This document shows, piece after piece, positions 32,836 to 63,877 of a stretch of 64,000 nt of DNA. The position numbers and the translations under genes were made by a program. The stretch comes from an uncultured Candidatus Saccharibacteria bacterium. Its GTDB lineage: Bacteria > Patescibacteriota > Minisyncoccia > UBA6257 > 1-14-0-10-44-23. Location of the stretch: the NCBI GenBank assembly GCA_964549935.1, contig CAZJVT010000003.1:159501-223500 (forward strand), written 5' to 3'. How positions within the stretch are numbered: position 1 is the first letter of the stretch; each line of letters begins with the position of its first letter. Below the pieces are notes generated by a model. The model searched no databases. It saw only the letters and a program-made list of their open reading frames with translations, and was not told the origin of the DNA.

Positions 32836-33570
32836 ATGCGTGCCCAGATGACGAACCTCCTTTCCGGTCTCGGCGTTGCCGGTTTGCCGATCAGGTCCGT
32901 GTCGGCCCGGACTTCCGCGAATGCCGGCTTCGGCACCTCCGCGGTCCTCCTCGTCGTCGTTCTCATCGCAGCGATCGGCGCCTTCTTCGCCTACTCGACC
33001 CGCGGCAGCAACGTGACCTCCGCCCAGTCGACGAATTCCATCGGGGCGACCACGATCATCGACCAGGGCACCCAGATGCGCTCCGGCTTCGAGCGCATGC
33101 TGGCGAACGGCTCGGCCGCGAGCCAGGTGACCTTCGACACGGCGGCGACTACCGGCCTGTTCAATCCGACGACCGGTGGCACGGGCGACCAGCCGCCGCC
33201 GCAGCGGAACCTGACGGACGAGGCGATCGCGGGCTCGGCCCCCTTCGCGGCGGCCGTCACGACCTACAGCTACAAGACGGGCGTGACCGGTCCCGCGAAC
33301 GTCGGCACCGCTGCCGGCCTCAAGTACGGCGTGTTCCTCCCGGGCGTGAAGCTGGCCGTCTGCCAGGCGATCAACAACCAGCTCTACTCGGATTCGCTGA
33401 GCGCGACGCCGGTGGCGAGCGGTCTTGCCGTCACGGCCTTCGTCGGCGGCGCGGCTGTCGACCTGACCGCCGGCGCCATGGCCGCCGGCCTCAGCCAGCG
33501 CTCCGAGGGCTGCATCGGCACCACCAGCGCCAACCAGTACGTCTACTACAAGGTCATGTACGTGCAGTAA
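32836..33570 (+). CDS. Type IVb major prepilin (long leader, about 30 aa, ending ...SANAG|FGTSAVLLVVVLIAAIGAFFAY; C-terminal Cys pair)
   Basis: SD AGGAGA 9 nt upstream of ATG 32836. Hydrophobic alpha1-N after G|F. C...C disulfide region LAVCQ ... EGCIG. Confidence 0.7.
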   Translation: MRAQMTNLLSGLGVAGLPIRSVSARTSANAGFGTSAVLLVVVLIAAIGAFFAYSTRGSNVTSAQSTNSIGATTIIDQGTQMRSGFERMLANGSAASQVTFDTAATTGLFNPTTGGTGDQPPPQRNLTDEAIAGSAPFAAAVTTYSYKTGVTGPANVGTAAGLKYGVFLPGVKLAVCQAINNQLYSDSLSATPVASGLAVTAFVGGAAVDLTAGAMAAGLSQRSEGCIGTTSANQYVYYKVMYVQ

Positions 33571-33572
33571 CG

Positions 33573-34076
33573 ATGGGCTGGATCAGCGCACTCATCGCCG
33601 CGATCGTCCTGAGCGGCGTCGTCGCCGCCTCCCAGGCGCGGAGCGGATCGACGGCCGCGAAGGTCCAGCGCATCGACACGGCTGTCGCCTCGCTCAATGC
33701 GCAGGCGAACATGACCCGTCAGGTGCTGACGCAATGCGCGCTCGACTATCCGTCGGGCGACAACGGCACCGGCTTCACCATCGCCTACCCGGCAGCGACG
33801 GCCGCAACGGCGCTCACCGGGCTGCAGTGCCCGGGGGCGCCTGCCGGCTTCAAGGACTTCTGGGGTGGCCGCAACGGCGTTTTCGAACCCGTGGCGCCAT
33901 CGGGCTTCGGCGCCTGGACCTACCTGAACAATGCCACCGGCGTCAGCCTGACGATCACGGCGGCGAGCGCCGATGCGGCTCTCGTCGCCGCCATGGACCG
34001 GGTGGCAGCGGCTTATTCGGCCACCGAGGCCACCCGCAGCGGGCTTTCACTCACCGTCTGGATCATCCGGCTATGA
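33573..34076 (+). CDS. Minor pilin-like protein
   Basis: N-terminal hydrophobic helix MGWISALIAAIVLSGVVAAS; Cys pair. Confidence 0.55.
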   Translation: MGWISALIAAIVLSGVVAASQARSGSTAAKVQRIDTAVASLNAQANMTRQVLTQCALDYPSGDNGTGFTIAYPAATAATALTGLQCPGAPAGFKDFWGGRNGVFEPVAPSGFGAWTYLNNATGVSLTITAASADAALVAAMDRVAAAYSATEATRSGLSLTVWIIRL

Positions 34077-34732
34077 GCAACGCGCGCAATCGCCAGGGCG
34101 GTTTCGCCCAGACCATCGCCATCGTCGCGATCGGCCTCGCGGCCGCCATCGGTCTTTCGGCTTCCTTCGCCTTCCGTCAGGCCAACGCCACCTCGCGCGG
34201 CCTCCAGAAGGAGCAGGTGAGGGGAGACCTCAGCCAGCTCGCCAAGCAGCTGGCGCTGATGTCGACGCCGGATTCTTCCGGGATCCTGACCGCCCCGGCC
34301 TTCGTCACGCCGACCTCGGGGACGCCGCCGACGAACGGCGGCAAGCTCCCGTCTTCCATCGCGACACGCACGACGACGCCCCAGGGAACCCCGTTCGGCT
34401 ACTGCCCGGTCAAGCTCGGCGATACCGCGGGCGCGGGGAACCGGATCGCCACCGGCGGAACGCCGGGTAGCTCGACGATCCTGTTCGCCCTGATCTCTCC
34501 CGGCGCCGACAGGGTCTTCCAGACCACATGCCCCGATGCGATCGCCGGCACCAGCTTAGGCGACGACGCGATCTTTCGAGCCCGCCACAGCGACGTGCAG
34601 CGCGTGGTCTACGAGGCGGCTGCCGACCGGCTGGGCCATAGCAGCTTCCAGGCCGCGGAGATGCGTTGCGCCGTCGACGGCAAGCTTTTCCAGCCATTCG
34701 CCACGGGCAAGGACGCCCGCGGCTGCAAATAG
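34073..34732 (+). CDS. Minor pilin-like protein (class III signal-like QGG|FAQTIAIVAIGLAAAIG)
   Basis: ATGA overlap with upstream pilin. G|FA motif shared with 32836 and 35271 genes. Confidence 0.6.
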   Translation: MSNARNRQGGFAQTIAIVAIGLAAAIGLSASFAFRQANATSRGLQKEQVRGDLSQLAKQLALMSTPDSSGILTAPAFVTPTSGTPPTNGGKLPSSIATRTTTPQGTPFGYCPVKLGDTAGAGNRIATGGTPGSSTILFALISPGADRVFQTTCPDAIAGTSLGDDAIFRARHSDVQRVVYEAAADRLGHSSFQAAEMRCAVDGKLFQPFATGKDARGCK

Positions 34733-35212: not shown

Positions 35213-35270
35213 TCCTTCGACCGGAAGCGCGGCCGGCATGGGTGCCGCGATCATGCAGAAGAGGTGTGCG

Positions 35271-37541
35271 ATGTTCAGCTTCATCAAGACCGGCTTCGGG
35301 ACCCGAGAAAGCCAGCGGGGTTTCGCCGCCGCGACCGTCCTGAGCGGGATCCTCCTCGCCGGCCTCGCCGCCGGCGTCATGTATTCGGGCTGGTCGTCGA
35401 CTCAGCGCACCACCGCCTCCCTGACCAAGTCGTCCAACAACGACTCGCTGATGTCGCAGGTCCGGGCGGCGATCATCTCGGAGCACGCCGATCTCGACGG
35501 CGACGGCACGCCGGAAGGTCCGGCGCCGCTGACCGGGGTCACGCCCATCCCGACTGGCGGCGGGCAGATCCCGGCGAGCTCGAAGGCGCCGAAGACCGAT
35601 GGCTGGGGCACCGCCTTCGGCTATTGCGCCTTCAAGAACGGCTCCGGCGCCGATCGCGCCGGATACATCCGGAACACGGCGACCTCGACCGGCGGCGAGA
35701 TCAGCTTCGCGATCATCTCCGCCGGCTCCGACAAGACGATCCAGACCACCTGCGCGCAGGCACTGACCCAGTCGGCGCAGGGCGACGACAAGCTCGCCAC
35801 ATACTCGCTCGCCGACGTGACGCTGTCTGGCGTCACCTTCAGCGGGGCCGGCTCGGGCACCAACTCCACCGACGTCCAGAACAAGCAGGTCGCCTGCGTC
35901 GCGAGCGGGAAGCTCTACGCAGGCGTCGGCGCGACCGGAGCGGATGCGAACGGCTGCATCGCGCCGGCCGGTTCCGGCGGCGGCATCGTCACCGACGCGC
36001 AGGGCCGCCTGGCGGTCTCCTGCACGCATATCTCGCAGCTCGTGACCAATCCGAGCGACGGCGAGTACATGCTCCTCGGCGTTCCGACCGACGGGTCGCT
36101 GCCGGCGATGTATCCGACGGAATGCGACTTCACCACCTGGGGTGGGAAGTGGACGATGGTCGCGAAGTACGACCCGACAGCGGCCTGCCCGGCCACGATG
36201 AAGGCTGGCGGCGTCTGCTCGGCGCCGTCGGACGGCATCGACCTGATGAACATGAGCCGGATCTCGAACGACATGACGTCGGTCCGGGCTCTCACGAACG
36301 CGCTTCGCTACCTGAAGCCGTTCAGCGAGATCATGATGAAGGACGCGAACGGGTCCTTCATCGTCTGGAACTGCGGCGGGAACCAGAGCCGGTCATGGTA
36401 CGAGCGCTACCTCGTCTATGGCGGAGCCGAGACCTGCTCGATCAGCAGCTCGACCTTCCATAATGGCGGGACCAAGTCGCTCAACACGCTGACGCCGAGG
36501 TTCCAGGTCAACCTGACCGGATTCCGGGAGCTGACTTCGACGCCGTTTTCCTGGTGGTCCTGTCCCGCCTACTCGAATTGCGACGGCGACTGGACCATCC
36601 GGACGACGGTGCAGCGCGACTATCCGGGATATTCGGGCAACTACTATTTCAATGCCGGCTATGTCTACATGCCGGCGCGCGGGACCAACGGCGTGGCCGA
36701 CTGGTACCTCAAGGTCTGCGATCTCTCGACGCTTGAGACGCGTGACGTCGTCTCGCCGATCGGCGGCACCTACGCGAATGGGTGCCAGGCGAGCTGGATC
36801 AGCACCTTCCGGGGACCGTGGAGCTTCACGTCCGGCCCGCGTCACGACTGGAGCTACGCCGTCGACTATCCCGGCGACGAAAACAACATCCTTCCCAGCC
36901 TGGCGCATCTCGCCACGCAGCCGCGGCCGAACCAGAACTGGGCACCGGACTATCAGCTCACGATTGTCTCGCCCGCGGCCATCAACGGCACCGGCTGGCA
37001 TCAGCGACTGAACTTTTCGGCACCGAATCCGTCCGACAGCAACAACGTCTGCAATTTCGGCTATGGCCAGTACGACGCCTACTGGGGCAACGGCGCCGCT
37101 GCCGCGGGAGTCTTCTTCCGACCTACCAGCTATCTCGTCTACGGCAACGGCACGCTCTCGAGCGTCCAGATGGGCTACGCCGGTCCGTGGCAGGATGCCT
37201 ATGCCTACTGGGAGTTCACCGGCGGCACCGGACAGAACTTCGCCATCCCCGGCTATGTCGACCTCAAGTATTCGATGATCAACGGCTCGGGCAACGGGCG
37301 GTCGATCTGTGCCGGTACCCGCAAGCTCTACTGGGGGTACCTGCATCAGGATGGCTACTGCGTCTTCCAGCAATACAAGGACTTCCATGCTTCCGGATAC
37401 TGGATGTGGCAGGACGGATGCCAGGCCCAGCAGGCTTTCAACAAGACCGAGACCGCGTTCAACGCGCTGCCGGGAAGCGTGCCCCTGGGGTTCGTGAAGT
37501 CCTTCATGCCGACGGACATCCGGAAGATCTATATCCGGTGA
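35271..37541 (+). CDS. Large pilin-like protein (756 aa): N-terminal prepilin-type segment RG|FAAATVLSGILLAGLAAGVMY, Cys-rich middle, Trp/Tyr-rich C-terminal domain. Putative tip adhesin / initiator minor pilin (PilV/TcpB/CofB analogue).
   Basis: SD AAGAGG 7 nt before ATG 35271. Multiple Cys pairs. Aromatic-rich C-terminus suggests carbohydrate binding. Confidence 0.65.
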   Translation: MFSFIKTGFGTRESQRGFAAATVLSGILLAGLAAGVMYSGWSSTQRTTASLTKSSNNDSLMSQVRAAIISEHADLDGDGTPEGPAPLTGVTPIPTGGGQIPASSKAPKTDGWGTAFGYCAFKNGSGADRAGYIRNTATSTGGEISFAIISAGSDKTIQTTCAQALTQSAQGDDKLATYSLADVTLSGVTFSGAGSGTNSTDVQNKQVACVASGKLYAGVGATGADANGCIAPAGSGGGIVTDAQGRLAVSCTHISQLVTNPSDGEYMLLGVPTDGSLPAMYPTECDFTTWGGKWTMVAKYDPTAACPATMKAGGVCSAPSDGIDLMNMSRISNDMTSVRALTNALRYLKPFSEIMMKDANGSFIVWNCGGNQSRSWYERYLVYGGAETCSISSSTFHNGGTKSLNTLTPRFQVNLTGFRELTSTPFSWWSCPAYSNCDGDWTIRTTVQRDYPGYSGNYYFNAGYVYMPARGTNGVADWYLKVCDLSTLETRDVVSPIGGTYANGCQASWISTFRGPWSFTSGPRHDWSYAVDYPGDENNILPSLAHLATQPRPNQNWAPDYQLTIVSPAAINGTGWHQRLNFSAPNPSDSNNVCNFGYGQYDAYWGNGAAAAGVFFRPTSYLVYGNGTLSSVQMGYAGPWQDAYAYWEFTGGTGQNFAIPGYVDLKYSMINGSGNGRSICAGTRKLYWGYLHQDGYCVFQQYKDFHASGYWMWQDGCQAQQAFNKTETAFNALPGSVPLGFVKSFMPTDIRKIYIR

Positions 37542-42127: not shown

Positions 42128-42134
42128 GCGCCCC

Positions 42135-45062: not shown

Positions 45063-45160
45063 CAGACCCTCCGGGGAGCGTCACGCCCCTATTCCGGGAT
45101 CGCGAACGCATGGTATCATAATGTGACTTCAAGATTATAGCGGACTGCGGAGAAAGCACG

Positions 45161-47578: not shown

Positions 47579-47665
47579 TCGTTGACGCGGCTCGCCGGCA
47601 GGGATTTCATCTTCCTCCCTAAGTAGCAGAGGGCCGACGACGGCCCCAACCGGGAGGACGGAACC

Positions 47666-47860
47666 ATGGCGGCCAAGAAGACGACGGGCGGCAACAGGAA
47701 GACCCTGACGTCGAAGAACGATGTCGAGAAGAAGCCCATCGATACGGGTGGAAGTCCGAAGAAAGGGCGCCAGGTCGTGAAGACCAAGCCGAAGGCCGGG
47801 AGGAAGCCGATCGACGAACGGCCCAGGATGCCGCCCGGCAAGACGCTCCTGAAGGGCTAG
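47666..47860 (+). CDS. Small Lys-rich basic protein (64 aa), possible nucleic-acid-binding
   Basis: SD GGGAGG 8 nt before ATG. Confidence 0.45.
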   Translation: MAAKKTTGGNRKTLTSKNDVEKKPIDTGGSPKKGRQVVKTKPKAGRKPIDERPRMPPGKTLLKG

Positions 47861-48573
47861 GCTTTAAGCTGCCTGCGAAGCCTGACGCTGGGCATCGTCG
47901 CCTGCGTCAGCTTCCAGCCACTACCGCGGCGCTCGAAGAAGAGGGTGTCCTGACGCGATCCGGGTCCCTCGAATTCCGGGAACACCCGGGCATTGAACAA
48001 TTCCTCCGCCCAGCGCGGGGCCAGGCCGGAAGGCCAGTCGGGAATCGACTGAATGAGGCAGCAGCAGCCGGCCGCATCCTCGGTCACCCGCGCGTCATGG
48101 ATCTGGGTCAGCTTGCGGCCGACCGACTGGAAGATGCCCGTTTCCGCATCGTAGCTGAGGCCATGACCGTTGAGCGAGACCGTGATCGAGCCGTCGAAGG
48201 AGGCCGCCGACGTCTTCAGGAGCCCGGCGTCGACGAGGGCACGGAGCTTCACCACTTGCTGGGGACCTAGGTCGCCCAGGCCGGACATCTTGATCTTCAG
48301 GGGAAACCTGATCGGTTTTCCCATCGCGAGGGACAGCCGGATCTCCTTGAGCTCGCCGGCGGCTGCCAGCCGGACCGCATCGAGCTCGTCGCCCGCCACC
48401 GGCCGGCCTGCGGGAAGTCCTTCGAGGGTTCCGGATTTCTCATCTTCGGCGTTCGCGATCGCGCCGGCCCCCGACCTTGCGACGACCGGCGCGACCAGTG
48501 CGACCGATCCCACGATGCCGAGGGCGGAAAGCATGACCGATCTGCGGGTGAGCATCGTCATGTGGCGCCTCAT
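47857..48573 (-). CDS. Periplasmic hypothetical protein with Tat-like signal (MRRHMTMLTRRSVMLSALGIVGSVALVA); contains CCC motif
   Basis: ATGA overlap with recJ stop. Confidence 0.5.
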   Translation of the reverse strand: MRRHMTMLTRRSVMLSALGIVGSVALVAPVVARSGAGAIANAEDEKSGTLEGLPAGRPVAGDELDAVRLAAAGELKEIRLSLAMGKPIRFPLKIKMSGLGDLGPQQVVKLRALVDAGLLKTSAASFDGSITVSLNGHGLSYDAETGIFQSVGRKLTQIHDARVTEDAAGCCCLIQSIPDWPSGLAPRWAEELFNARVFPEFEGPGSRQDTLFFERRGSGWKLTQATMPSVRLRRQLKA

Positions 48574-50480
48574 GGTTCCGACGGCTCGTGCTTGGCGTAG
48601 GACTTCGCCTCGCCGGGTGCGCTTCGGCCCGGCTGCGAGCCGATCTCGAAGCTCGGCGAAGATTCGCGCGCGTCCTCGAGGAGCATCTCGACGTTGACGT
48701 AGCCGTTCCACTCGTTGACCCGGAGCTTGCCGGCGACGTCGAGACGACCGCCTTCGGCCGCGAGGAGAGCGTCTCCCAGGGGTGTGCCGACGGCTCCGAA
48801 GGCCATCGCCTTGGTCCTGGAGCGGCGGCCGTCGCCGCTGACCAGGTCGAGACGGATATGACGGTCCTTGAGCACCTTGACGGCGGAGACGGTGACGTTG
48901 GTGAGAGCGACCCTGGGTTCGGGGTTGCCCTGGCCGAAGGGCTCGAGGACCTTCATGTCCTCGAGATCGGCGACGTCGATCTCGCCGGGCGAGACCGCGA
49001 GGTCGATGGAGTAGGAGCGGGCATCTCCATGCTCGAAGACCGGGGCCGCGGCGTCCTCGAGATAGCGGGAGAGCTCGGGAAGCCGGTTACTTGCGATGCT
49101 CAGGCCGGCCGCCATCGGATGGCCGCCGCCATGGCTGAGGATGCCTTGCTGGCGAGCAGCGATCACGGCGCGGCCGAGATCGAAGCCGGTGACGCTCCGG
49201 GCGGATCCCTTCCATGAGGTGGCGGCGCCGTCGCTCGCACCGAGCACCAGTGCCGGACGGTCGTAGCGCTCCTTGAGGCGTGAGGCGACGACGCCGACGA
49301 TGCCCGGATGCCAGGACGGCTTGCCGACCACGAGGAAGGCGTCGCCGGCATGAGCCCACACCTCGTCGCCATTCGGTTCGCCGGCCGTACCGCCCGCCTC
49401 GATCGCCTGGACCGCCTCATCGAGGGTCTCGTCGCACAGGCGGCGACGCTCCTCGTTGATGCGATCGAGGGACTCGGCGATCGCCTTGGCCTCCGCCGGA
49501 TCGTCGGTGGTGAGAAGGCGAGATCCGAGGCCGCAGTCGTCGATGCGCCCGGACGCGTTGACCCGCGGCCCGAGAACGAAGCCCAGATGCCACGCCTTGA
49601 TCTCGGACTCTTCGACGTAGCGCAGAAGCGCGGCGATGCCGGCATTCTGGCGCCTTTCCATGACCTGCAGGCCGAGGGCGACGAGAGGTCGGTTGAAGCC
49701 GATCAGCGGCACGACATCGGCGACTGTGCCGAGCGCCACCAGGTCGAGGAGGGACGAGAGCCTCGGGCGATCGCGATTGGCGAAGACGCCGGCGTCGCCG
49801 AGGGCCTTGTCGAGCGCGACGCAGAACAGCCAGGCGATCCCGGCCGTACACATGTAGCCGTGGTCGCCGGCTTCCCTGGGCTGGTCCGGGCGGTTGGGAT
49901 TGACGATCGCTGTCGCGGGCGGCAGCGCGTGCTCGGCGACGTGGTGGTCGACCACGACGATATCGAGGCCGGCATCGGCTGCGGCGGCGAGGGGTGCATG
50001 GGCCGTGGTCCCGGAATCCAGGCAAAGGACCAGGTCGATGCCTTCGTTCTTGAGCTTGAGGAGGGCAGGGGCGTTCGGCCCGTAGCCTTCCTTCATGCGG
50101 TCGGGAATGTAGATGAGGGGTTCCGGCGCATCGGGGCATGCCATGCGCACGTAGCGCTGCACGATGGCGCTCGAGGTGGCTCCGTCGACGTCGTAGTCGC
50201 CGAAGAGGGCGATGCGCCCGCGCTTCGCGAGCAGGTCGGCAACGCGATCGACGGCCTTCCCCATGTCGATGAAGGAAAGCGGGTTCGGCATGCCTTGCAG
50301 GGTGTGCCTGAGGAAGCCCGGCCTGGCCTCGTCGTCGATGCCGCGCTGGCGCAGCACTTCGTCGAGGGTCCAGGCTCCGCGGCGTGCCGAGCCCGGAGCT
50401 TCCCGGAAACGCCATCCGAGGCCGCGGTAGGAGCGGTGGGGCTTCTTGTCGTCGGCTTGCGAAAGGGCGGCGGTGCTCAA
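48570..50480 (-). CDS. recJ: Single-stranded-DNA-specific 5'-3' exonuclease RecJ
   Basis: DHH motifs FGDYDVDGATS and VVDHH; DHHA1 GGGH. Start codon is TTG at the ORF edge. Confidence 0.9.
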   Translation of the reverse strand: MSTAALSQADDKKPHRSYRGLGWRFREAPGSARRGAWTLDEVLRQRGIDDEARPGFLRHTLQGMPNPLSFIDMGKAVDRVADLLAKRGRIALFGDYDVDGATSSAIVQRYVRMACPDAPEPLIYIPDRMKEGYGPNAPALLKLKNEGIDLVLCLDSGTTAHAPLAAAADAGLDIVVVDHHVAEHALPPATAIVNPNRPDQPREAGDHGYMCTAGIAWLFCVALDKALGDAGVFANRDRPRLSSLLDLVALGTVADVVPLIGFNRPLVALGLQVMERRQNAGIAALLRYVEESEIKAWHLGFVLGPRVNASGRIDDCGLGSRLLTTDDPAEAKAIAESLDRINEERRRLCDETLDEAVQAIEAGGTAGEPNGDEVWAHAGDAFLVVGKPSWHPGIVGVVASRLKERYDRPALVLGASDGAATSWKGSARSVTGFDLGRAVIAARQQGILSHGGGHPMAAGLSIASNRLPELSRYLEDAAAPVFEHGDARSYSIDLAVSPGEIDVADLEDMKVLEPFGQGNPEPRVALTNVTVSAVKVLKDRHIRLDLVSGDGRRSRTKAMAFGAVGTPLGDALLAAEGGRLDVAGKLRVNEWNGYVNVEMLLEDARESSPSFEIGSQPGRSAPGEAKSYAKHEPSEP

Positions 50481-54988: not shown

Positions 54989-55678
54989 CTAGACCGCGAT
55001 CTCCCTGATCCGATGCCCTTCGCGCCTCGGCAGCACGCGTTCGCCGGTGCGGACGCGGCGCGTCCGGAACATGTCGCGGCGATGCGGATTGTTGTGGAGC
55101 CAGAGGCGGGCATAGTAGGCGACGAAGTTGTTGTTGACCTTGAAGCCGCGGCCGCCGCGGGTCACGACATCGCACTCCCACCGGATCCGGTGCATGACCT
55201 GGTCCGCGGAGATCCGCTCAAGACCCCGGTCGATGACCTCTCGCATGAAGGTCGTGAAGAGTTCGTAAATGGCCGGGTTCTCCTCATGGAAAGCCCAGAA
55301 GGCACGTTCGAGGTCCGTCACGTTGCCCGGAAGGGGGCAGGGCCCTGCCCCTTCGGTCGCGCCAACCGGTTCCAGGAGAGGATCCGGCGCTCCGGCTCCA
55401 GCCTCCATTCCCGCTGCGGGCGGCGTCACATCCATGTCGGCGTCGGACGTCGCCGTCGCCGCGCGATCCTCGAAAGCGCGTCGAAGGACTGGCCCGAGGA
55501 CCGGACGTTCCATCCGCACGGGAAATTCGTTGGAGCCGTGGGCCGGCGGAGCCGGGGCGGGTGCCGGCGCGGCTGGGCCTCGATCTTCGCCAGGCGGCCT
55601 TAACGCCTGAAGACCCTCGCCCTCGAGGGCATGGCGAGGGGGCCGGGTATCGCGATCGAGGGGGATGGCAGTGGTCAT
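54989..55678 (-). CDS. Hypothetical protein (conserved-looking C-terminal 100 aa; real start possibly MERPVL near 55519)
   Basis: ORF track. Confidence 0.45.
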   Translation of the reverse strand: MTTAIPLDRDTRPPRHALEGEGLQALRPPGEDRGPAAPAPAPAPPAHGSNEFPVRMERPVLGPVLRRAFEDRAATATSDADMDVTPPAAGMEAGAGAPDPLLEPVGATEGAGPCPLPGNVTDLERAFWAFHEENPAIYELFTTFMREVIDRGLERISADQVMHRIRWECDVVTRGGRGFKVNNNFVAYYARLWLHNNPHRRDMFRTRRVRTGERVLPRREGHRIREIAV

Positions 55679-55788
55679 GCGCGGTCCGTCGTCCAGGAAT
55701 ATAAAAGCATATACTATATGCGATAGACGAGAAACCGCTTTGTGCTTTCTCTTCCATTTGCTCTAGTGGGGGGAGGAGGTGCATCCAC

Positions 55789-56103
55789 ATGAACGCTGTC
55801 AGAACCAGTCATTCCCAGGCTGCCGGCAAGATCGTGCCGGTCGCGGTCACCGGCTTCGCGCAGGTTGCCGCTGCGCTTGCTTCCGCGAGCGGAAACGAGA
55901 CTATTGCGGCTCGCCTGGCCTACATCACGGAGTTCGAGAAGGACGGGGCGAAGGCTCTCGTGACCTCGTTCGGTTTCGAAGGCGGCGAGTCGGCGACCTT
56001 CGCCTGGCCTGACCGCCAGACTTTCGAGAACTTCCTCGGGTCACCGGAATTCACGGGCCGACCGGCTTCGGTATCCGCCCCCGGCCAGGCCGCCAGGACC
56101 TGA
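55789..56103 (+). CDS. Hypothetical protein (104 aa)
   Basis: SD GGAGGAGG before ATG. Confidence 0.55.
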   Translation: MNAVRTSHSQAAGKIVPVAVTGFAQVAAALASASGNETIAARLAYITEFEKDGAKALVTSFGFEGGESATFAWPDRQTFENFLGSPEFTGRPASVSAPGQAART

Positions 56104-56715: not shown

Positions 56716-57225
56716 GTGTCGACGAAGCTCCCGCAATTCGCGCTGCAGCTCAGCGTGTGGCATCTGGGCGAGGAGGCGATCAGGCAGATCGCCTCCGATG
56801 CCCCGGAAGCCGATCCGACCTTCCCCTGGTCCTTCGACGGCACCGGCGACGAACAAAAGATCGGCCGCATCGTCGATCTCATGGCGAAGGGCCTCTATGT
56901 CAAGGCGGCCAGCCTCCACCTGCCTGACATGCCGCTCTCGGAGGCCCTGGGCTTCGCCTACATGGCGACGATGAGCATCCAGGCGCCCTGGTACGGGCCG
57001 TCGCGGCAGTCGAAGGGCTACATCGTCGAGCCCAGCGGCTGGTCGAACAGGAACACCTCGATCGGCGACGTCATCATGGCGTCGGACCGTATGGTCCATG
57101 CCTGCTGCTCGACCGGGTGGCGAGACGTCGGTCCGGCGCCCGAGATCATGCTGGATCTGGATTCCGCGGTCGGCATCGATGTCGCGCGCGCCGGGAAATC
57201 CCTACTGGCGGGAATGTCGCCCTAG
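56716..57225 (+). CDS. Hypothetical protein (169 aa, GTG start)
   Basis: ORF track. Confidence 0.5.
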   Translation: MSTKLPQFALQLSVWHLGEEAIRQIASDAPEADPTFPWSFDGTGDEQKIGRIVDLMAKGLYVKAASLHLPDMPLSEALGFAYMATMSIQAPWYGPSRQSKGYIVEPSGWSNRNTSIGDVIMASDRMVHACCSTGWRDVGPAPEIMLDLDSAVGIDVARAGKSLLAGMSP

Positions 57226-58550
57226 CTCGGCATCTTCGTATTGAAGAGCGTCGCACCTGACAGCAGCGCGCCCTGCAGGCTGGCCGCCGTCAGGTCGCTG
57301 AAGCTGAGGTCGGCGCGTGTCAGGTCGGCGCCACGAAGGTCCGCGCCAACGAGGTTGGCGTAGCGGAGCTTGGCGCCGACGAGCCTCGCCGGAAGCGTCT
57401 TGTTGCCCTGAAGCGGCAAGGGCGAAAGCATCGCCGAGCTCAGGTCGGCATGGTCGAGGCGCGCATTGGTGAGATTGATGCCTCGACAATCGGCCCCGCG
57501 CAGCGCGAGCTCCCGCGCGTCGACGTTGGCGAAGGTCGCCGCCTGGAGCTGCGACCCGGAAAAGTCGATCTTGTAGAGATTGGCGCCCTCCGCCTTGATC
57601 GCGACCAGGACCCTTTCCTTGAACGGGCCTTCCGCCCTGAGATCGAATCCGGTGAGATCGAGCGCGCTCCCCTGGGATCCCCGGGAGGAGACGAATAGCT
57701 CATGGGCTTCGACGAGTTGGGCGAGCGGCTTGCCGAGCTCGGAGATCTTCCGGCCCGTCGCGCTGTCCGTCAGGGCACCGGACATGTTGGCATTGTCGAG
57801 GTGCGCGATCTTGAGATCGACGCCTACCAGGATCGCGTCCTTGAGAACCGCTCCTCGCAGATCGGCGTTTGCGACCTTGGCTCCCTCGAGGTTGGCGCGC
57901 GTCAGGTCCGCGCCCTTCAGGTTGGCGCGCGTCAGGTCCGCGCCTTTCAGGTTGGCGTCGGTGAAATCGGTGTGAGAGACGACGGAGCCGCCCAGCTTCG
58001 CGCCGCTCAGGTCGCTCTTGGCGAAGTTCGCGGCGGTGCCATCGTCCTTGTCGTCCATGCTGCGAACCTGGATGTCGCGTCCCTGGGTGCGGTCGGCGAC
58101 GGCGCCGTCCCGGAGGTCGGCGCCCATGAGCTTCGCGTTCTGGAGATTGGCTCCGCGGAGCCGCGAGCCGCGGAGATCGGATTTCGACAGATTGGCGCCG
58201 ACGAACGACGCACGCCTGAGGTCGCAGGCGAAGAGGGTCGCTCCCTCCAGCGAGCAGCCATCGAGGACCGCCCCCTCGAGCGAGGCGCTCGAGAACGTCG
58301 CCTGGTTCAGGTTGCGCCCGGTGAGAACCAGGCCGCGAAGGTTCGCATTGGTGAAGTCGGCGCGGATGCCGCCGGGGATGCCGTTCAGGAACATCTCGTG
58401 GCGAAGGACGATGTTGTTCACGTCCGACTGGCTGAGATCGACTCGGGCGAAGCCTGCGGGCCTGCCGGCGCCGTTCGACTGCACGGACCCCACGGGACCG
58501 AGACGCGGCGACTCGCTCGTCGGCTGCGGGAATACCAGGGCGCTGCTCAT
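57222..58550 (-). CDS. Pentapeptide-repeat protein (443 aa)
   Basis: Runs of A(D/N)L(S/T/R)xA-type pentapeptides. Inner ATG MSSALVF at rc 58548-58550. The upstream part of the ORF overlaps dnaQ in another frame. Confidence 0.8.
   Translation of the reverse strand: MSSALVFPQPTSESPRLGPVGSVQSNGAGRPAGFARVDLSQSDVNNIVLRHEMFLNGIPGGIRADFTNANLRGLVLTGRNLNQATFSSASLEGAVLDGCSLEGATLFACDLRRASFVGANLSKSDLRGSRLRGANLQNAKLMGADLRDGAVADRTQGRDIQVRSMDDKDDGTAANFAKSDLSGAKLGGSVVSHTDFTDANLKGADLTRANLKGADLTRANLEGAKVANADLRGAVLKDAILVGVDLKIAHLDNANMSGALTDSATGRKISELGKPLAQLVEAHELFVSSRGSQGSALDLTGFDLRAEGPFKERVLVAIKAEGANLYKIDFSGSQLQAATFANVDARELALRGADCRGINLTNARLDHADLSSAMLSPLPLQGNKTLPARLVGAKLRYANLVGADLRGADLTRADLSFSDLTAASLQGALLSGATLFNTKMPS
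57891..57960. repeat. 30-bp tandem DNA repeat (about 2.3 copies) GTTGGCGCGCGTCAGGTCCGCGCC(C/T)TTCAG inside the pentapeptide gene
   Basis: Read directly. Confidence 0.7.
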
Positions 58551-58578
58551 GGAGTGCTTCCTCTCTGCTGACCTGATG

Positions 58579-59415
58579 TCACGGGCCCGGCGTCCCGCCT
58601 GCATCGCTTTCGGGCTTCTTGCCGTCGGCGACCTTGTCCCACAGCGGATTCTTGATCTCCGACCGGACATGGTTCCTATGCGCTTCCGTCTCGGCGGGAT
58701 CGAACTTGAAGACCCGTGCCGGACGGATGCCGGCGGCCCCGGTCTTCGCAGGGGCGCCGGCGGGACCGTCGACGCGGCCGTCTGCGGCGACCGGTCCCGT
58801 GGTTGCGCTTCCTTGCTGGGCATCGCCCGATTTCACCGCCGAAATTCCGAAGAGATCCCTCGGATCGGCACCAGCCAGGCAGGCGAAGACCTGCGCGAGG
58901 ATCTGGGCGTCGATCAGGCCGCCGTGCAGCGTCCGCCCTTCGGTCGAGACTCCATATCGCCTTGCGACCCGAGAGAGGTTCACCTGGGTTCCGGGGAACT
59001 TTTCCTTCACCATCGGGATCGTGTCATGGACCCGTTCGTGCGCGATTCCGGGCCTGCCGATACGTGCGAGCTCCTCGTCGAGGAAGCCGACGTCGAAGGG
59101 CGCGTTGTGGATGACGAGCCTGGCATCGCCGAGGAAATCGACGAACCCGGAGGCGACCTCCTGAAACCGCGGGAAGTTGAGAAGGAACTGCCTCGAGAGG
59201 CCGTGGACCTGAAACGCCTCCCTGGGGACCGCTCGATCGGGGTTGATGTAGGTGTGGTAGGTGCGCCCCGTGATCTTGCCGTCGATGAGCTCGACGCCGC
59301 CGATCTCGATCACGCGATCGTTCTTCGGATCGAGTCCGGTCGTCTCGGTATCGAGCGCGACAAACCGTCCCGAAAGGGAGATGTCGAGCGCCGATGGGCG
59401 GCCGTTGCCGCTCAC
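58579..59415 (-). CDS. dnaQ: DnaQ-like 3'-5' exonuclease (DNA polymerase III epsilon family)
   Basis: Exo I FVALDTETTGLDP, Exo II HNAPFDVGFL, Exo III HGGLIDAQILAQVF. GTG start at rc 59413-59415 overlaps the upstream TGA (GTGA). Confidence 0.8.
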   Translation of the reverse strand: MSGNGRPSALDISLSGRFVALDTETTGLDPKNDRVIEIGGVELIDGKITGRTYHTYINPDRAVPREAFQVHGLSRQFLLNFPRFQEVASGFVDFLGDARLVIHNAPFDVGFLDEELARIGRPGIAHERVHDTIPMVKEKFPGTQVNLSRVARRYGVSTEGRTLHGGLIDAQILAQVFACLAGADPRDLFGISAVKSGDAQQGSATTGPVAADGRVDGPAGAPAKTGAAGIRPARVFKFDPAETEAHRNHVRSEIKNPLWDKVADGKKPESDAGGTPGP

Positions 59416-60806
59416 GACCGATGATCCTCGGGAAAGAAGCGCACGACGATGCGGCCGGGAGCGCCCATCCATCTCGGGTCCGGATCCTCGATCCACAGCG
59501 GCATCGTCATGACACCGAAATCCGTGACGGCCAAAACCCGAAGGACGAACTCCTCGCTGGATGACGGCCTGGACTGGCTGCCGAGAAGGAAGCTGCGGCC
59601 GCCGATGATCACCCGCTGCGAACCGATGGGCGAGGACGCCTCGCCCCCGATGCCGGCGTAGCCGTTCCAGTCCGGATCGCGGGTGCCGCCGGGCAGCCTG
59701 CCGAGACCGCGATCGCCATGGCGGAGCGCGGCCGAGATGTCGACGAAGCTCGAGCTGCCGCCGCCGCCACCACCGCCGCCGACCCTGCAGTCTCCAGGGC
59801 CGTCGCGAGTGGTTTCGCAGGCGATCAGGCCGGCGCTTCCCCCGCCCGCGCCAGCAAGACCGGAGCCGCCGGGTCCGCCATGGCCGATCGGAGCCAGGTT
59901 GAAGGCAAGCCGGTCGACCTGCGGACGGATCGCGGATCGGATCCCCGCGAAGGTTGGGTTGTCGTCGATCGAGGCGAAGGTCCTGACGATCCGCCAGGGA
60001 ACGCCGCCGCGGCCGCCGCAGAAATTGGTCCCGCGCTCGCCTGCCTCGCCTTGCTCGAACTCGCCTTCCGGGTTCGGGTATCCGCCACGGCCTGGATTGT
60101 TGCCGCGCGACGCAGCGCCGCCCTGTCCGGCGAGAGGACCGCTTCCGTTGCGCCCGGGCTCGCCGATGTTTCCCGGGGACGGCGCGGCGCGCGTCGAGAT
60201 CGCGTCAGGCGAGGGCGGCAGGATGTCGTTGCCGCCTGCCGCTCCGCCATCGCCGCCGTCGGTGACGGTGCCGGCCGCTCCGCCGGCGCCGCCGCTTCCG
60301 GCCGTGGCGACGTTCCTGCCTGCGATCGAGAGGAAGGTCTCGCCGCCGCCTTGCATGAGGCTCCCGCCGCAGCCGGCGACGATGGCGATCTCGTCGCCCG
60401 CACGAACCAGGTGCCTGAAGAACAGGAACTCGCCGCCGCCGCCGCGGCCGCCGCGTGCGAGATAGCTTGGATGGCCGGCGCCGGCGCCAGCCCCCCAGAG
60501 CTTGGCTTCCATCCAGCCGCAACCCGGCGGAACGACAAGCCGCCGGCTGTCGGGACCGTCTACGACGATGGCTCCGGACGGACACCCGTCGGCGCTACGG
60601 AAGGGTTGGCCGCCGGTACCGGTAGCAGGCGGCAGGGCAGGGGATGCAGGTGTGGCCGCGGGTCTCGCCGCGTCGGTCGCCGTCGATGACTTCGGCGCCG
60701 GCGGCGCGGGCTGCGGCACCCAGATCTGCTGGCCCTGCGCACCGGATCCTGCAAGGAGCAGGAAGCCGCAGAAGAGAAGCGAGCCGAGGCGCGAAGCGTA
60801 GATCAC
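59412..60806 (-). CDS. Secreted glycine-rich protein (GGxGG/GxGxG repeats), signal peptide IYASRLGSLLFCGFLLLAGSGAQG
   Basis: Long ORF 59412..60845. GTG at rc 60804-60806 with SD GAGG lies downstream of the peptidase stop. The other frames are Arg-rich. Confidence 0.5.
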   Translation of the reverse strand: MIYASRLGSLLFCGFLLLAGSGAQGQQIWVPQPAPPAPKSSTATDAARPAATPASPALPPATGTGGQPFRSADGCPSGAIVVDGPDSRRLVVPPGCGWMEAKLWGAGAGAGHPSYLARGGRGGGGEFLFFRHLVRAGDEIAIVAGCGGSLMQGGGETFLSIAGRNVATAGSGGAGGAAGTVTDGGDGGAAGGNDILPPSPDAISTRAAPSPGNIGEPGRNGSGPLAGQGGAASRGNNPGRGGYPNPEGEFEQGEAGERGTNFCGGRGGVPWRIVRTFASIDDNPTFAGIRSAIRPQVDRLAFNLAPIGHGGPGGSGLAGAGGGSAGLIACETTRDGPGDCRVGGGGGGGGSSSFVDISAALRHGDRGLGRLPGGTRDPDWNGYAGIGGEASSPIGSQRVIIGGRSFLLGSQSRPSSSEEFVLRVLAVTDFGVMTMPLWIEDPDPRWMGAPGRIVVRFFPEDHRS

Positions 60807-60813
60807 CGATGCC

Positions 60814-61560
60814 TCAGGAGATGAGGCCGGCGACGTCCGCCGCATGAGCGATCAGCGCTGCGATGCCAAGGAATGGCGCGAGCCGAAGTCTCCAGGACGA
60901 GCGTTCGTCCGCCTTCAGCATGAAGAAGGGAGCGAGCGCGAGGGCGGAAGCGACCGAGACGGCGATCAGCACCGGCGCCATGCCCAGCAGGGCGCCCATC
61001 CCGAGAACCATCTTGGCGTCTCCGCCGCCGATGAGATCGCGCATGGAGATCTCCTCGCCGAGCCTTTGGCGCGCCATCGCCAGGAAGAAAGCCGACCCCT
61101 CGACCGTGAGCCATCCAACGGCAGCGCCGAGGATCGCATCGCTCGGGAAGAGGGGCCAGAAGGCGTCGAGCCACGGAACGGCGACCGGCGCCAGGAGGCC
61201 GAGCCAGAGAAGGGAGCCGGTCAATGCCGGAGGAAGCTGTCCGGTCCTTGCGTCGGCGATCATGAGCATGGCGACGAGCGCGAAGGCGGCGGCATGGACG
61301 GCGCCGACGACCGTAGCTCCATGGATCATCACCGGCATCGCCACGATCGCGGAGAGCATGAGCCTGAGGGCGAGGTCCTCGCCGAGGCCCGATCGCACGC
61401 AGGCTCGGACGACGTCACCGATCTCGTGGCCCTCGATATGACGGTCGCGCTCGATGCAGTCGGCGAGGGTCGAGCTCAGCCTGATCGAGCCGGGGCAGGC
61501 AACGAAGGCCAGGGCACCGGCGGCGGCGGCGGCGCCGAGGGTCTGGAGGATCATTGTCAT
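60814..61560 (-). CDS. Prepilin peptidase (A24 family, short form without N-terminal Zn/methyltransferase domain)
   Basis: Catalytic Asp motif GGGDAKM and polytopic TM profile. Inner ATG MTMILQTLG verified at rc 61558-61560. The upstream part of ORF 60814..61944 is Arg/Pro junk. Confidence 0.85.
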   Translation of the reverse strand: MTMILQTLGAAAAAGALAFVACPGSIRLSSTLADCIERDRHIEGHEIGDVVRACVRSGLGEDLALRLMLSAIVAMPVMIHGATVVGAVHAAAFALVAMLMIADARTGQLPPALTGSLLWLGLLAPVAVPWLDAFWPLFPSDAILGAAVGWLTVEGSAFFLAMARQRLGEEISMRDLIGGGDAKMVLGMGALLGMAPVLIAVSVASALALAPFFMLKADERSSWRLRLAPFLGIAALIAHAADVAGLIS

Positions 61561-61582
61561 GATGCTTGCGGCCGTGCCGTAG

Positions 61583-62644
61583 TCAGGTGAGCGCCGGGCC
61601 GGCGTAGGCGGGGACCCTGGCCTTGCCCGCATCTTCGGATGCGGGTCCCGGCGATGCCGTGTCGGGCTCGGCGTCGGGCGCCGGCACCTGGCGCAGGCCC
61701 TCGGCTTCCGTCTCGTCGAGCCCGATGTCAGAGGTTCCGGCGGCGGGAGGAACCTTGGGTTCGGGTCCGCGCGGAGCGACAAGGGGCGAGGCCGGCATCG
61801 TCCGGAAGGAGATTGACCTGGTGCCTTCCGGGGCGGCGGTCGCGTCGGCTGCCGGAGCGGAGGGTTTCTGGACGGACGGCGGCGGCGGGATCTCCAGGGT
61901 CCGATCGACCTTGGAAGCGGCGCCCTCCGGCGCGGGCTCCACAACGCGCTCGCCGGGCAGGTCGATGAGCGGAGCTTCGCGCGCCCTGGCCTTTTCCCTG
62001 CTCAGGCGGCTGACTTCCGCGGTGTCCTTCGGCGTCGGCTCGTATCCGGTCGTCTGGATGCCCGCCTGCTGGAGGGCGATCCATGCCTTCCGGCGGAACT
62101 CGTCGGTCCCATCCAGCTTCACGGCTTCCCAGTCATGGGCCTGAACCATGGCCAGCATCACCTCGATCGCCTCGTCGGTGGCTTTCGAGACGTCGATGCG
62201 GCTGGCGAAGTCGTCGACATTCGCACCGTCCCGGGTGCTGATGCGTCGCATGTCGAGATCGATCGACGACACCATGGAGAAGAGATCGGAATCGATGCCG
62301 GAGCCGGGGAAGAGCTTCGACCACTTGGCCTTGATGACCTCCTCCTCGTCTCCCGGCACCCGCTGCTTCTTCCGGAAGATGCGAAACCTGTGCGCGAGAC
62401 GGGTCAGCAGCCCGTCGTCCGGATCGGCGGAAGCGACCCTGGCCGGCCTGCGGGGCTCCTCCATCCGATCGAAGACGGTCGCCGCGGCCTGGTCGCCGGC
62501 GTCGGCGTCGTCGATGTTCTTTCGGTCTTCGGGATCGCCGGCGGCCTTGGAAGCGATCGGCGGGGCGGCGCGGCCGCCAAGGTCTTCTCCGGCAGGCGAG
62601 GGCTTCGCCTCGAGGCCGACTGGGGTAATTGTGCCGACCGGCAT
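61583..62644 (-). CDS. Hypothetical protein with LPD7-like (relaxase/primase-associated) central domain; Pro/Ala-rich termini
   Basis: DWEAVKLDGTDEFRRKAWIALQQAGIQTTGYEPTPKD resembles the LPD7 GY-P motif region; tentative. Confidence 0.45.
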   Translation of the reverse strand: MPVGTITPVGLEAKPSPAGEDLGGRAAPPIASKAAGDPEDRKNIDDADAGDQAAATVFDRMEEPRRPARVASADPDDGLLTRLAHRFRIFRKKQRVPGDEEEVIKAKWSKLFPGSGIDSDLFSMVSSIDLDMRRISTRDGANVDDFASRIDVSKATDEAIEVMLAMVQAHDWEAVKLDGTDEFRRKAWIALQQAGIQTTGYEPTPKDTAEVSRLSREKARAREAPLIDLPGERVVEPAPEGAASKVDRTLEIPPPPSVQKPSAPAADATAAPEGTRSISFRTMPASPLVAPRGPEPKVPPAAGTSDIGLDETEAEGLRQVPAPDAEPDTASPGPASEDAGKARVPAYAGPALT

Positions 62645-62728
62645 TTATCTACCTTTCATAAGAAGCCGACACGATATTATAGGATGATGCCCAGGAAGCG
62701 GGAAGCCCGATCTGGCCGCATTCGCGAA

Positions 62729-62743
62729 TATCGCATAATGCGA
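62729..62743. promoter_or_regulatory. Perfect 15-bp palindrome ATCGCATAATGCGAT (plus TTCGCGAA at 62720-62727) in the divergent promoter region 62645-62846
   Basis: Read directly. Confidence 0.35.
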
Positions 62744-62846
62744 TTTATGGAAAATTTCCCGCAGGAGACGGTTTGCGGATCGTCTTGGCGGCAGGAGCGC
62801 TGAAGGAAGTTGCCGGCCCGATTATTTATCGTGCATACTATAGCTT

Positions 62847-63368
62847 ATGCTGATGAAAGCCGCCCGCGACGCCTCCGAACCCCAGACGCTGCCGGTCCTG
62901 TCGGCCGGCGTGAGGGCCCTGATCGATCGCCGCGGCGTCACGTTCGCTTCCGGGACGCTGATCCTCACGAGCCAGGAAGTGGGCGATCCGTTGGGCCTTC
63001 TTCCCTACCTGATGCTCGATGCCGCGAAGATCTGGTCCGAAGCCACGGGTACGCGGCTCGGCGTCCGCGTCTTCGAGGATCCGGAAGCAGGCTTCAACCT
63101 CCGATGCGGCGAACCGCTCTGCCCGGCGACGATCGCGTTGCTCGCCCTCGACATGTCCATCGAGGAAGCGATCGCGGTGCAGGGCTTCGAGAACGCGATG
63201 TTCGCGGCCGGTCATGCAGAAGCGGCCAGCCCGCATCGAAGGATCATCCGCTACGGCAGCCGTCTTGCCTCATGGGCTCGCGCCGTGCATCGCGCCCGGA
63301 CGCTTCGGCTCGAGGCGGACGTTGCCGCCGCCGAGATGGGCCGGCGCGGTTCCTCCGGAGAAACCTGA
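62847..63368 (+). CDS. Hypothetical protein (173 aa), first gene of + strand transfer-like operon
   Basis: ORF track. Confidence 0.5.
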   Translation: MLMKAARDASEPQTLPVLSAGVRALIDRRGVTFASGTLILTSQEVGDPLGLLPYLMLDAAKIWSEATGTRLGVRVFEDPEAGFNLRCGEPLCPATIALLALDMSIEEAIAVQGFENAMFAAGHAEAASPHRRIIRYGSRLASWARAVHRARTLRLEADVAAAEMGRRGSSGET

Positions 63369-63877
63369 TGGGTTACGTGCTCTCCGCCCTCGCCGCCGCC
63401 TGTGCGTCCGCAGCGGCGAACCTCTACCAGCTGCCGCAGCCGATCCTGCCGATCCTCCTCGATCTCGAGGGCGGCACCGTCGGCGCCGTCTCCCGCAACA
63501 CGAACGGTACCGTCGACATCGGCCCGATGCAGGTCAACTCGCACTGGGTCCCGAAGCTCGCGAGGCGTTACGGCGTCGCTCCAGATGTCGTCTATTCGAA
63601 GCTCCTCAACGACGAGTGCTACAACATCCATGTCGGCGCCTGGATACTGAAGACCGAGATCGAGCTCGCCCAGGGCGATTTCTGGGAGGGTGTCGGCCAC
63701 TACCACTCCCGCTCACCGGTCCATAAGCGCCGCTACATGCAGAATGCGGTCAGGGCCGCGGTAAAGAGGTTCGGGGACGGGATCTTCCAGTCGACCCGTC
63801 CGGTGCGGACGGCGATGGCCGATGCTCCGCCCGGTCCCGCTGTGCCGCAGGCCGCCTCGCCCGCGAGGAGCCGCTGA
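63368..63877 (+). CDS. VirB1/TrbN-like lytic transglycosylase (SLT domain)
   Basis: GPMQVNSHW and HYHS motifs. ATG overlaps the upstream TGA. Confidence 0.8.
   Translation: MGYVLSALAAACASAAANLYQLPQPILPILLDLEGGTVGAVSRNTNGTVDIGPMQVNSHWVPKLARRYGVAPDVVYSKLLNDECYNIHVGAWILKTEIELAQGDFWEGVGHYHSRSPVHKRRYMQNAVRAAVKRFGDGIFQSTRPVRTAMADAPPGPAVPQAASPARSR

Follow-up and report, generated by a model that had tools for sequence, protein, structure and literature searches.

A candidate five-gene operon with a lone prepilin peptidase faces the coupling-complex genes of an IncI-like mobile element

We have analyzed a 64,000-nucleotide stretch of DNA (hereafter the window; positions 159,501 to 223,500 of contig CAZJVT010000003.1, assembly GCA_964549935.1, from an uncultured Candidatus Saccharibacteria bacterium) with a focus on five minus-strand genes that run from position 62644 to position 57222. 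In this order, they encode an LPD7-domain protein, a prepilin peptidase of family A24, a secreted Gly-rich protein, a DnaQ-type exonuclease and a pentapeptide-repeat protein. The reading that we favor, with a probability of roughly 0.55, is that these genes make up a lineage-specific conjugation-auxiliary operon of an IncI-like (type IVB, Dot/Icm-type), probably integrative, conjugative element, most likely of an alphaproteobacterium. The part of this reading that we hold most firmly is that the A24 enzyme would process the type IVb pilins of this same element as a PilU-like leader peptidase.

A candidate operon of five minus-strand genes

Gene boundaries were taken from reading of the sequence and from gene calls made independently on a public contig of identical sequence (L001). 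The five genes are those of the LPD7 protein (61583..62644; 353 residues; PF18821), the A24 peptidase (60814..61560; 248 residues; PF01478), the Gly-rich exported protein (59412..60806; 464 residues; PF21722), DnaQ (58579..59415; 278 residues; RNase_T and NF004316) and the pentapeptide-repeat protein (57222..58550; 442 residues; PF00805). The initial annotation had named the same five families on the minus strand of 57222-62846, and all five were confirmed by hidden Markov model (HMM) searches. The operon-like architecture that it described is likewise evident, with intergenic gaps of 22, 7, -4 and 28 nucleotides on a single strand. It had also proposed GTGA and ATGA couplings between the genes. 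We found one true start/stop overlap, the GTGA at 59415-59412 that joins the stop of the Gly-rich gene to the start of dnaQ, and no ATGA junction inside the operon.

The GC content at third codon positions (GC3) is uniform across the five genes, ranging from 0.81 to 0.86. Terminator-like hairpins occur within the block at chance level (5 observed, 3.0 ± 2.1 expected). At the sequence level, the block thus has the marks of an operon, namely a single strand, short or overlapping junctions and internal terminator-like sites that are no more frequent than chance, and these features suggest that the five genes are co-transcribed. No structured RNA was found in the region with Rfam, and no tRNA was found in the window. 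A phage origin of the operon was considered and discarded after a PHROGs scan.

It is also evident that this arrangement is shared with a second lineage, represented by Logan contigs L004 and L005. These contigs show the same gene order, with orf173, the first gene of the operon that faces the five genes, on one strand and the LPD7, A24, Gly-rich and DnaQ genes on the other. The encoded proteins are 73% (orf173), 51% (LPD7), 69% (A24), 73% (Gly-rich) and 77% (DnaQ) identical between the two lineages. In plasmids, megablast with the 6-kb region and tblastn with orf173 gave no match.

The A24 peptidase and its candidate pilin substrates

The A24 peptidase matches PF01478 with 40.9 bits (gathering cut-off 26.5; E = 3e-10), and its relative P0002 matches the same model with 44.9 bits. 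Both catalytic residues, Asp103 (ADARTGQLP) and Asp181 (GGGDAKM), are invariant in an alignment with PilD-type enzymes. Five groups of hydrophobic windows, starting at residues 2-8, 63-86, 113, 182-199 and 227-230, indicate a polytopic inner-membrane protein. The A24_N_bact region carries a deletion of about 45 residues and has only two Cys at the aligned positions, where bifunctional PilD has the four-Cys CxxC...CxxC arrangement. No match to PF06750 (A24_N_bact) was obtained at E<0.01, while the nearest distant relatives of the enzyme do possess this domain. The lineage is an isolated one: it is represented by two clusters among 5.8 billion proteins, and an HMMER scan of 1.84 billion representatives returned one relative at E<1e-10, the next being at 3e-9.

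The initial annotation had stated that this is the sole prepilin peptidase of the window and that it is encoded apart from the pilins, and both statements hold. A search of all six-frame open reading frames with an HMM built from four A24 enzymes found no second A24 in the window, and a second HMM scan found none in the 8.9 kb of L001 past the window end, so that the enzyme is the sole A24 in 73 kb. Its gene lies about 25 kb from the type IVb pilus cluster. This cluster, located at 26-37.5 kb, encodes a secretin, a T2SSE ATPase, a T2SSF platform protein and three G↓F prepilins (the arrow marks the cleavage site), and no peptidase was found within it.

The three prepilins, all encoded on the plus strand, are the presumed substrates. 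The type IVb-like prepilin at 32836..33570 has a long leader ending in ...SANAG↓FGTSAVLLVVVLIAAIG (SANAG↓FGTSAVLLVVV), and the minor prepilin at 34073..34732 begins with MSNARNRQGG↓FAQTIAIVAIGL (NRQGG↓FAQTIAIVAIG). The third, a large prepilin-like protein of 762 residues (35253..37541), contains ...ESQRG↓FAAATVLSGILLAG (ESQRG↓FAAATVLSGILL; ESQRG↓FAAATV). In translation, all three show G↓F followed by a hydrophobic helix, and cleavage of their leaders by the A24 enzyme is predicted. The 35253-37541 protein also has a weak fibrinogen-like GGGWT match; by analogy with PilV of plasmid R64, it is possibly a candidate type IVb pilus-tip adhesin. We pair the A24 peptidase with these pilins because there is one peptidase for three substrates, the pilus cluster is free of any peptidase, and the active site is intact.

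The divergent control region

A 202-bp divergent control region (62645..62846) is common to the LPD7 operon and the coupling-complex operon that faces it. Alignment of this region with L004 revealed three conserved blocks. One block consists of about 30 nucleotides around a perfect 15-nucleotide palindrome, ATCGCATAATGCGAT (62730..62744), and L004 retains 6 of its 7 arm pairs. Another contains GGCTTCCCGCTTCC plus CTATAATATCGTGTCGGCTT, with a perfect TATAAT that would serve as the -10 box of the LPD7 operon (62676..62681, minus strand); it is located 31 nucleotides before the LPD7 start codon and is kept in L004. The remaining block, TTATTTATCGTGCATACTAT, lies immediately before the ATG of orf173. 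The -35 element of the LPD7 operon is poor and is overlapped by a conserved GCTTCC-C-GCTTCC repeat, and a consensus scan found no full sigma-70 match. An RBS-like (ribosome-binding site) AAAGG is present 8 nucleotides upstream of the LPD7 ATG.

The palindrome ATCGCATAATGCGAT is the one that the initial annotation had noticed in the promoter region. It indeed lies in the shared control region and is a candidate regulator site; the -10 box of the LPD7 operon follows about 50 nucleotides downstream, and the window has no other copy of the palindrome. There are 18 perfect 7-1-7 palindromes in the window, compared with 7.3 ± 2.8 in shuffled sequences, so none of them is rare in itself. The weight of ATCGCATAATGCGAT is therefore placed on its position in the gap between two operons and on its partial conservation in L004. 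A role as a repeated operator was considered and discarded, since the window has one copy even with 3 mismatches allowed. A second short palindrome, GGAAAATTTCC (62749-62760), lies beside ATCGCATAATGCGAT. The layout is compatible with the earlier proposal that pilin processing and conjugative DNA metabolism are co-regulated.

An AT-rich perfect palindrome, GCATATACTATATGC (55707-55721), was observed in another divergent gap, between the genes at 54989-55678 (minus strand) and 55789-56103 (plus strand). The element may have a second regulator site here.

The facing operon encodes a type IVB coupling complex

The facing operon starts with orf173 (62847..63368, plus strand), whose 173-residue product has no family match in Pfam, NCBIfam, PADLOC or PHROGs; its GC3 is 0.80. 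The second gene (63368..63877, plus strand) encodes a TrbN/VirB1-like lytic transglycosylase of 169 residues (TrbN, 3.9e-24). Past the window end, L001 continues with a DotM/IcmP homolog (NF033890, 6e-36), for which a precomputed Pfam DotM_C match also exists, a 201-residue protein and a 912-residue coupling protein of the DotL/TrbC type (NF041447, 1.7e-100). The DotM and DotL/TrbC scores all fall under the equivalog cut-offs and are to be read as family-level membership. Judged by its predicted DotM and DotL/TrbC-type coupling protein, the type IV secretion system (T4SS) is of type IVB (IncI/Dot-Icm-like) and not VirB-type.

The initial annotation had described a transfer operon that begins with a VirB1-like gene. 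A divergent transfer operon is indeed present, but the transglycosylase gene is its second gene, after orf173, and the VirB-type assignment does not agree with DotM and DotL/TrbC. Neither a relaxase nor an origin of transfer (oriT) was located in the window or in the 8.9-kb L001 extension.

At the start of orf173 (62822-62849), a conserved TACTAT ends 5 nucleotides upstream of the ATG and no Shine-Dalgarno sequence is seen; the mRNA of the coupling-complex operon may for these reasons begin as a leaderless one. The genes inside this operon overlap by 1 nucleotide (TGATG).

The LPD7 protein and the Gly-rich exported protein

The product of the first gene matches PF18821 at residues 138-210 with 51.8 bits (gathering cut-off 27; E = 8e-14). 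In comparison with L004, a core of about residues 93-225 is nearly invariant, and the whole protein shows 51-56% identity. The core is flanked by divergent Pro/Ala-rich arms, which are probably disordered, and a few residues are conserved at the extreme C-terminus. A sequence search of the PDB returned nothing meaningful for this protein. In a collection of 72,556 plasmid records (PLSDB), LPD7 domains were found in 176 records, mostly of conjugative plasmids. The LPD7 gene lies directly downstream of virD4 in all five plasmids inspected (from Xylella, Leisingera, Sphingobium, Burkholderia and Moraxella). In the element described here, the gene and the DotM/DotL operon are arranged head-to-head, and the coupling gene is about 3 kb away. 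Because of the recurrent gene position, a link between the LPD7 protein and the coupling protein is plausible. Solo LPDs have been found in T4SS neighborhoods, where they likely facilitate early invasion, with their functions left open (Iyer et al. 2017, PMC5512222). In a Cupriavidus metallidurans plasmid (L100, 162-175 kb), we observed a run of genes in one orientation that encode LPD7, ankyrin+LPD7, DUF5710 and LPD1; within this run, LPD7 is fused to ankyrin (effector-like) repeats.

The Gly-rich protein has a borderline match to PF21722 (Gly_rich_2), with 24.4 bits against a cut-off of 24.3 (E = 3.5e-5). It consists of a Sec-type signal peptide (AQG↓QQ), a Pro-rich linker and a Gly-rich domain, and contains six invariant Cys. 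The mature N-terminus is invariant from QQIWVPQPAPPAPKSS (QQIWVPQP). The family forms 2 clusters among 5.8 billion proteins, and the only relative, P0005, shares 72-73% identity and keeps six of the six Cys. No relatives were found in species-representative genomes, a collection that excludes the source genome, and none was found in the PDB by sequence.

A DNA polymerase III epsilon paralog and a pentapeptide-repeat protein

DnaQ matches RNase_T (1e-34) and scores 207.8 bits on NF004316, above the cut-off of 196, and 209.4 bits on TIGR01406, below the cut-off of 222.7; the latter two models align the protein over positions 1-186 only. The DEDDh motifs are kept in the alignment, namely ExoI (DTETTG), ExoII (HNAPFDVGF) and ExoIII (HGGLIDA). 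The closest relatives are alphaproteobacterial proteins with 43-60% identity, which are named DNA polymerase III (Pol III) subunit epsilon wherever they are named; five of the seven aligned relatives carry this source name. Across these seven alphaproteobacterial epsilon-type relatives, a C-terminal motif P..E..AH...W is also invariant (P240, E242, A245, H246 and W259 in this protein). In Escherichia coli epsilon (...DEEIAAHEARLDLV...CLW), the position of this motif presumably corresponds to the segment that tethers epsilon to the alpha subunit. Because the C-terminal tail motif is kept beside the DEDDh motifs, the protein is, as far as its motifs can tell, a complete Pol III epsilon paralog and not merely an exonuclease domain. 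The earlier label of a proofreading-type exonuclease can thus be made more specific, as a full-length Pol III epsilon paralog with the tail motif.

DnaQ-type genes match 57 of the 72,556 plasmid records, most of which are chromids or mislabelled chromosomes, and no pentapeptide neighbor was found beside these matches. True plasmid-borne copies are thus uncommon. One full-length DnaQ paralog, with 36% identity over 95% of the query, was observed on the Methylorubrum extorquens AM1 megaplasmid (L097, 674959-675693), which is of the MPF_I type; it does not adjoin the coupling-protein gene of that megaplasmid.

The pentapeptide-repeat protein matches PF00805 in 7 stretches (209 bits, 3e-63), is cytoplasmic and has three repeat blocks. 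Its gene has the RBS GAGAGGA, and there is a 4-nucleotide overlap between its stop and the end of a convergent gene. The Qnr/MfpA-like label of the initial annotation could not be upheld: the protein scores 76.5 against a threshold of 240 on the Qnr model and 90.1 against 360 on the MfpA model, and its 442 residues are twice the size of those proteins. Because both thresholds are missed so widely and the size is doubled, protection of topoisomerases by this protein would be merely an analogy.

Interpretation and alternative explanations

In the conjugation-auxiliary reading, one promoter in the 202-bp region would drive the LPD7, A24, Gly-rich, DnaQ and pentapeptide genes as a single transcript, back-to-back with the operon of orf173, the lytic transglycosylase, DotM, the 201-residue protein and DotL/TrbC. 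The substrates of the A24 peptidase would be the type IVb pilins of the element, whose genes lie 25 kb away and whose leaders it would cleave at G↓F. The LPD7 protein would be a DNA-transfer accessory associated with the coupling protein, or else a passenger protein. The DnaQ epsilon could dock on the host Pol III alpha subunit while the element or the transferred strand is being replicated. The pentapeptide protein would act as a DNA-mimic-type modulator of a DNA enzyme. The Gly-rich protein would be an exported, disulfide-bonded surface or periplasmic protein and possibly an adhesin. For the epsilon paralog, the pentapeptide protein and the Gly-rich protein, these roles are proposed at the family level only. 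A bolder version, to which we give little credence, adds that epsilon on the host alpha subunit and the three-block pentapeptide DNA mimic form a replisome-tuning pair. This pair would be expressed with the transfer genes, possibly with the LPD7 protein as a client of the coupling complex, and would alter proofreading or protect DNA enzymes during strand conversion, while the Gly-rich protein would be a new mating adhesin that is matured and displayed with the pilus.

Several observations weigh against a conjugation-auxiliary operon. The L004 and L005 contigs end inside DnaQ, so that only the first four operon genes are seen in the second lineage, and synteny at 51-77% identity may be inherited rather than selected. 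A coupling-protein search of the species-representative genomes yielded 80 loci with 34-41% identity, and none of the 80 has any of the five genes within 10 kb. Similarly, the annotated type IVB plasmid regions of Bosea, Thalassospira and Roseomonas that were inspected are without LPD7, Gly-rich, DnaQ and pentapeptide homologs, and two of these three regions hold an unrelated A24 of their own, which lies inside the pilus cluster in Thalassospira and about 6 kb from the coupling gene in Bosea. Its absence from the 80 loci and the three plasmid regions means that the five-gene module is dispensable for this T4SS family. The assignment of the LPD7-operon promoter is tentative because the -35 is poor. 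The AlphaFold predictions reached a predicted local distance difference test (pLDDT) value of 53 for the LPD7 core (single sequence) and of 29 for the Gly-rich protein (2-sequence alignment), both too poor for a fold search, and the roles proposed for these two proteins are therefore weakly inferred. Finally, the pilins are without the canonical Glu5. A PilD may also be encoded on the host chromosome, which makes the link between peptidase and pilins non-exclusive.

The absence of the module elsewhere could also be explained by a mosaic of unrelated accessory or cargo genes that share one unit by history; of these, the peptidase would serve the pilus, and the remaining four would have independent roles outside transfer. 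We regard this explanation as possible, if doubtful. The five families have no known functional link, and the module is missing from the 80 related T4SS loci. A24 (at E<1e-3) and Gly-rich gave no tblastn match in the 72,556 plasmid records. The 43-60% identity of DnaQ to alphaproteobacterial epsilon makes it look like a captured host gene. However, a mosaic sits poorly with the translational coupling at GTGA and the very short gaps, with the conservation of both the coding sequences (51-77%) and the promoter blocks in the second lineage, and with the recurrent association between LPD7 and the coupling protein. A further explanation, which we consider unlikely, is an establishment or anti-defense module. 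The type IVB system would be served by LPD7, DnaQ and the pentapeptide protein, or might even translocate them, and in the recipient these proteins would protect and convert the incoming single strand. Repeat proteins are typical Dot/Icm substrates, and the fusion of LPD7 to ankyrin repeats in the Cupriavidus plasmid, as well as the disordered arms and conserved extreme C-terminal residues of the LPD7 protein, speak in favor of such a module. It would resemble leading-region genes and polyvalent proteins of other conjugative elements, and LPDs were defined from polyvalent proteins that are thought to be early-acting, with solo LPDs found near T4SSs (PMC5512222). Nevertheless, no oriT or relaxase was located that could place the genes in a leading region; PADLOC returned nothing specific, and a membrane peptidase and a Sec-exported protein are misfits in such a module.

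Two narrower explanations concern parts of the operon. The A24 and Gly-rich genes are 7 nucleotides apart, and both are confined to the same two lineages, which could suggest a two-gene secretion or maturation pair in which the peptidase is dedicated to the Gly-rich protein and not to pilins. This is very improbable, as the Gly-rich cleavage site is A-x-G/A↓QQ with an invariant mature N-terminus and no G↓F-hydrophobic prepilin motif, whereas the element has three proper prepilins; processing of the Gly-rich protein by A24 was discarded in view of its ordinary Sec-type signal peptide. We find it hardly credible that DnaQ and the pentapeptide protein, either by themselves or with further genes of the operon, constitute a cargo anti-phage defense system. 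DEDDh exonucleases do occur in defense contexts, and DnaQ has PADLOC matches to DEDDh (7e-35) and PDC-S48 (3e-31). These matches span the exonuclease domain only, no other operon gene has one, and DnaQ has the full length of an epsilon subunit, including the Pol III tail. A known defense system was accordingly discarded after the PADLOC scan, the matches being generic DEDDh ones to DnaQ alone.

If the conjugation-auxiliary reading is correct, the pilus machinery of IncI-like elements outside enterobacteria can be split and is not one gene block. A leader peptidase under a control region shared with the coupling genes would make pilus maturation depend on when the DNA-transfer motor is expressed. 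The element also provides one of few cases of a complete Pol III epsilon on a mobile element, and should this epsilon become part of the host replisome, it would be relevant to the influence of such elements on replication fidelity. The position of LPD7 by the coupling genes in every plasmid inspected is a lead on LPD7 function. No known principle is changed by these results.

The surrounding mobile element

The window has the content of a mobile element, with a tyrosine recombinase gene (8491-9609), the pilus cluster, a dUTPase, a PAS histidine kinase and other accessory genes, among them those of helix-turn-helix and response-regulator proteins (for example 23445-24203 and 25116-25901). Between 14947 and 22118, we observed genes for an SRAP (SOS-response-associated peptidase) fusion, two HipA-type kinases, each beside a helix-turn-helix gene (HipAB-like), and an S24 LexA/CI-like repressor. 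The location of the tyrosine recombinase upstream of the SRAP, HipAB and S24 genes is consistent with an integrative element. The region 40403-50480 encodes a Toprim/topoisomerase-like protein, a 975-residue RecD2-like helicase, a WGR/ligase-like protein and RecJ; the Toprim protein and the helicase have 27-29% identical counterparts by the coupling gene on the Bosea plasmid pANAM02. The gene at 54989-55678 (minus strand) encodes 229 residues, of which the C-terminal 90 match the phage protein family phrog_13625 (E = 2e-21).

Comparison with known systems

The closest parallel in organization is R64 (IncI1), which combines Dot/Icm-like Tra/Trb transfer, with TrbA as DotM and TrbC as DotL, and a type IVb thin pilus whose prepilin peptidase is PilU. 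R64 shares with this element a type IVB system and a type IVb pilus (secretin, ATPase, platform protein, long-leader pilins and a large adhesin-like pilin), a short A24 in which the N-terminal methyltransferase domain is not functional, as well as a small lytic transglycosylase. The pilU gene of R64, however, lies inside the pil operon, between pilT and pilV, whereas the A24 gene described here is located 25 kb from the pilins, together with the LPD7, Gly-rich, DnaQ and pentapeptide genes. R64 is not known to have an epsilon paralog or a pentapeptide protein in this position.

Plasmids of Methylibium petroleiphilum (RPME01), Thalassospira xiamenensis, Roseomonas and Bosea encode coupling proteins that are 34-38% identical to the one described here. 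The order of an unassigned gene, the lytic transglycosylase, DotM, a second unassigned gene and the coupling protein is shared with Methylibium, where DotM/IcmP is annotated, and with Thalassospira and Roseomonas, where DotM is recognized by position and partial DotM_C similarity. The pilus cluster of Methylibium RPME01 (L095, 361-370 kb; L096) is syntenic with 26039-34076 (plus strand) of the window, the secretins being 33% identical, the ATPases 32% and two more of the proteins 29-33%, and it likewise has no annotated peptidase. This compact type IV pilus cluster is made up of genes for a secretin, a small protein, an ATPase, a platform protein and four small proteins. In contrast with the five genes described here, the divergent operon of Methylibium encodes a prepilin-type protein and an ankyrin-repeat protein, and none of the four plasmids has LPD7, Gly-rich, DnaQ or pentapeptide genes nearby.

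The plasmids with solo LPD7 genes (MPF_T/MOBP; Xylella pXF-RIV19, Leisingera, Sphingobium, Burkholderia and Moraxella) resemble this element in an LPD7 domain that is 30-40% identical and in its location adjoining the coupling gene. They differ in that their LPD7 genes are co-directional and follow a VirD4-type gene, often by a relaxase, whereas LPD7 here heads a divergent operon that faces a DotL-type complex; the flanking regions are also unrelated. DnaQ is similar to chromosomal alphaproteobacterial epsilon in its DEDDh domain (43-60% identity) and in the conserved C-terminal motif, but it is encoded by a mobile element, has a 15-residue N-terminal extension and a longer, divergent linker, and falls under the TIGR01406 cut-off. 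The pentapeptide-repeat protein shares tandem repeats, presumably folded into a right-handed beta-helix, with proteins of the Qnr, MfpA and McbG type. Those proteins have about 180-220 residues, compared with 442 residues in three blocks with non-repeat linkers here.

The family of every gene in the operon is thus a known one, as is the combination of an IncI-like T4SS, a type IVb pilus and an A24 peptidase, which is that of R64. What is new is a highly divergent, N-terminally truncated A24 that has been relocated to this position, the company that it keeps, in which there is a complete epsilon paralog, and the finding that LPD7 is consistently placed by coupling genes.

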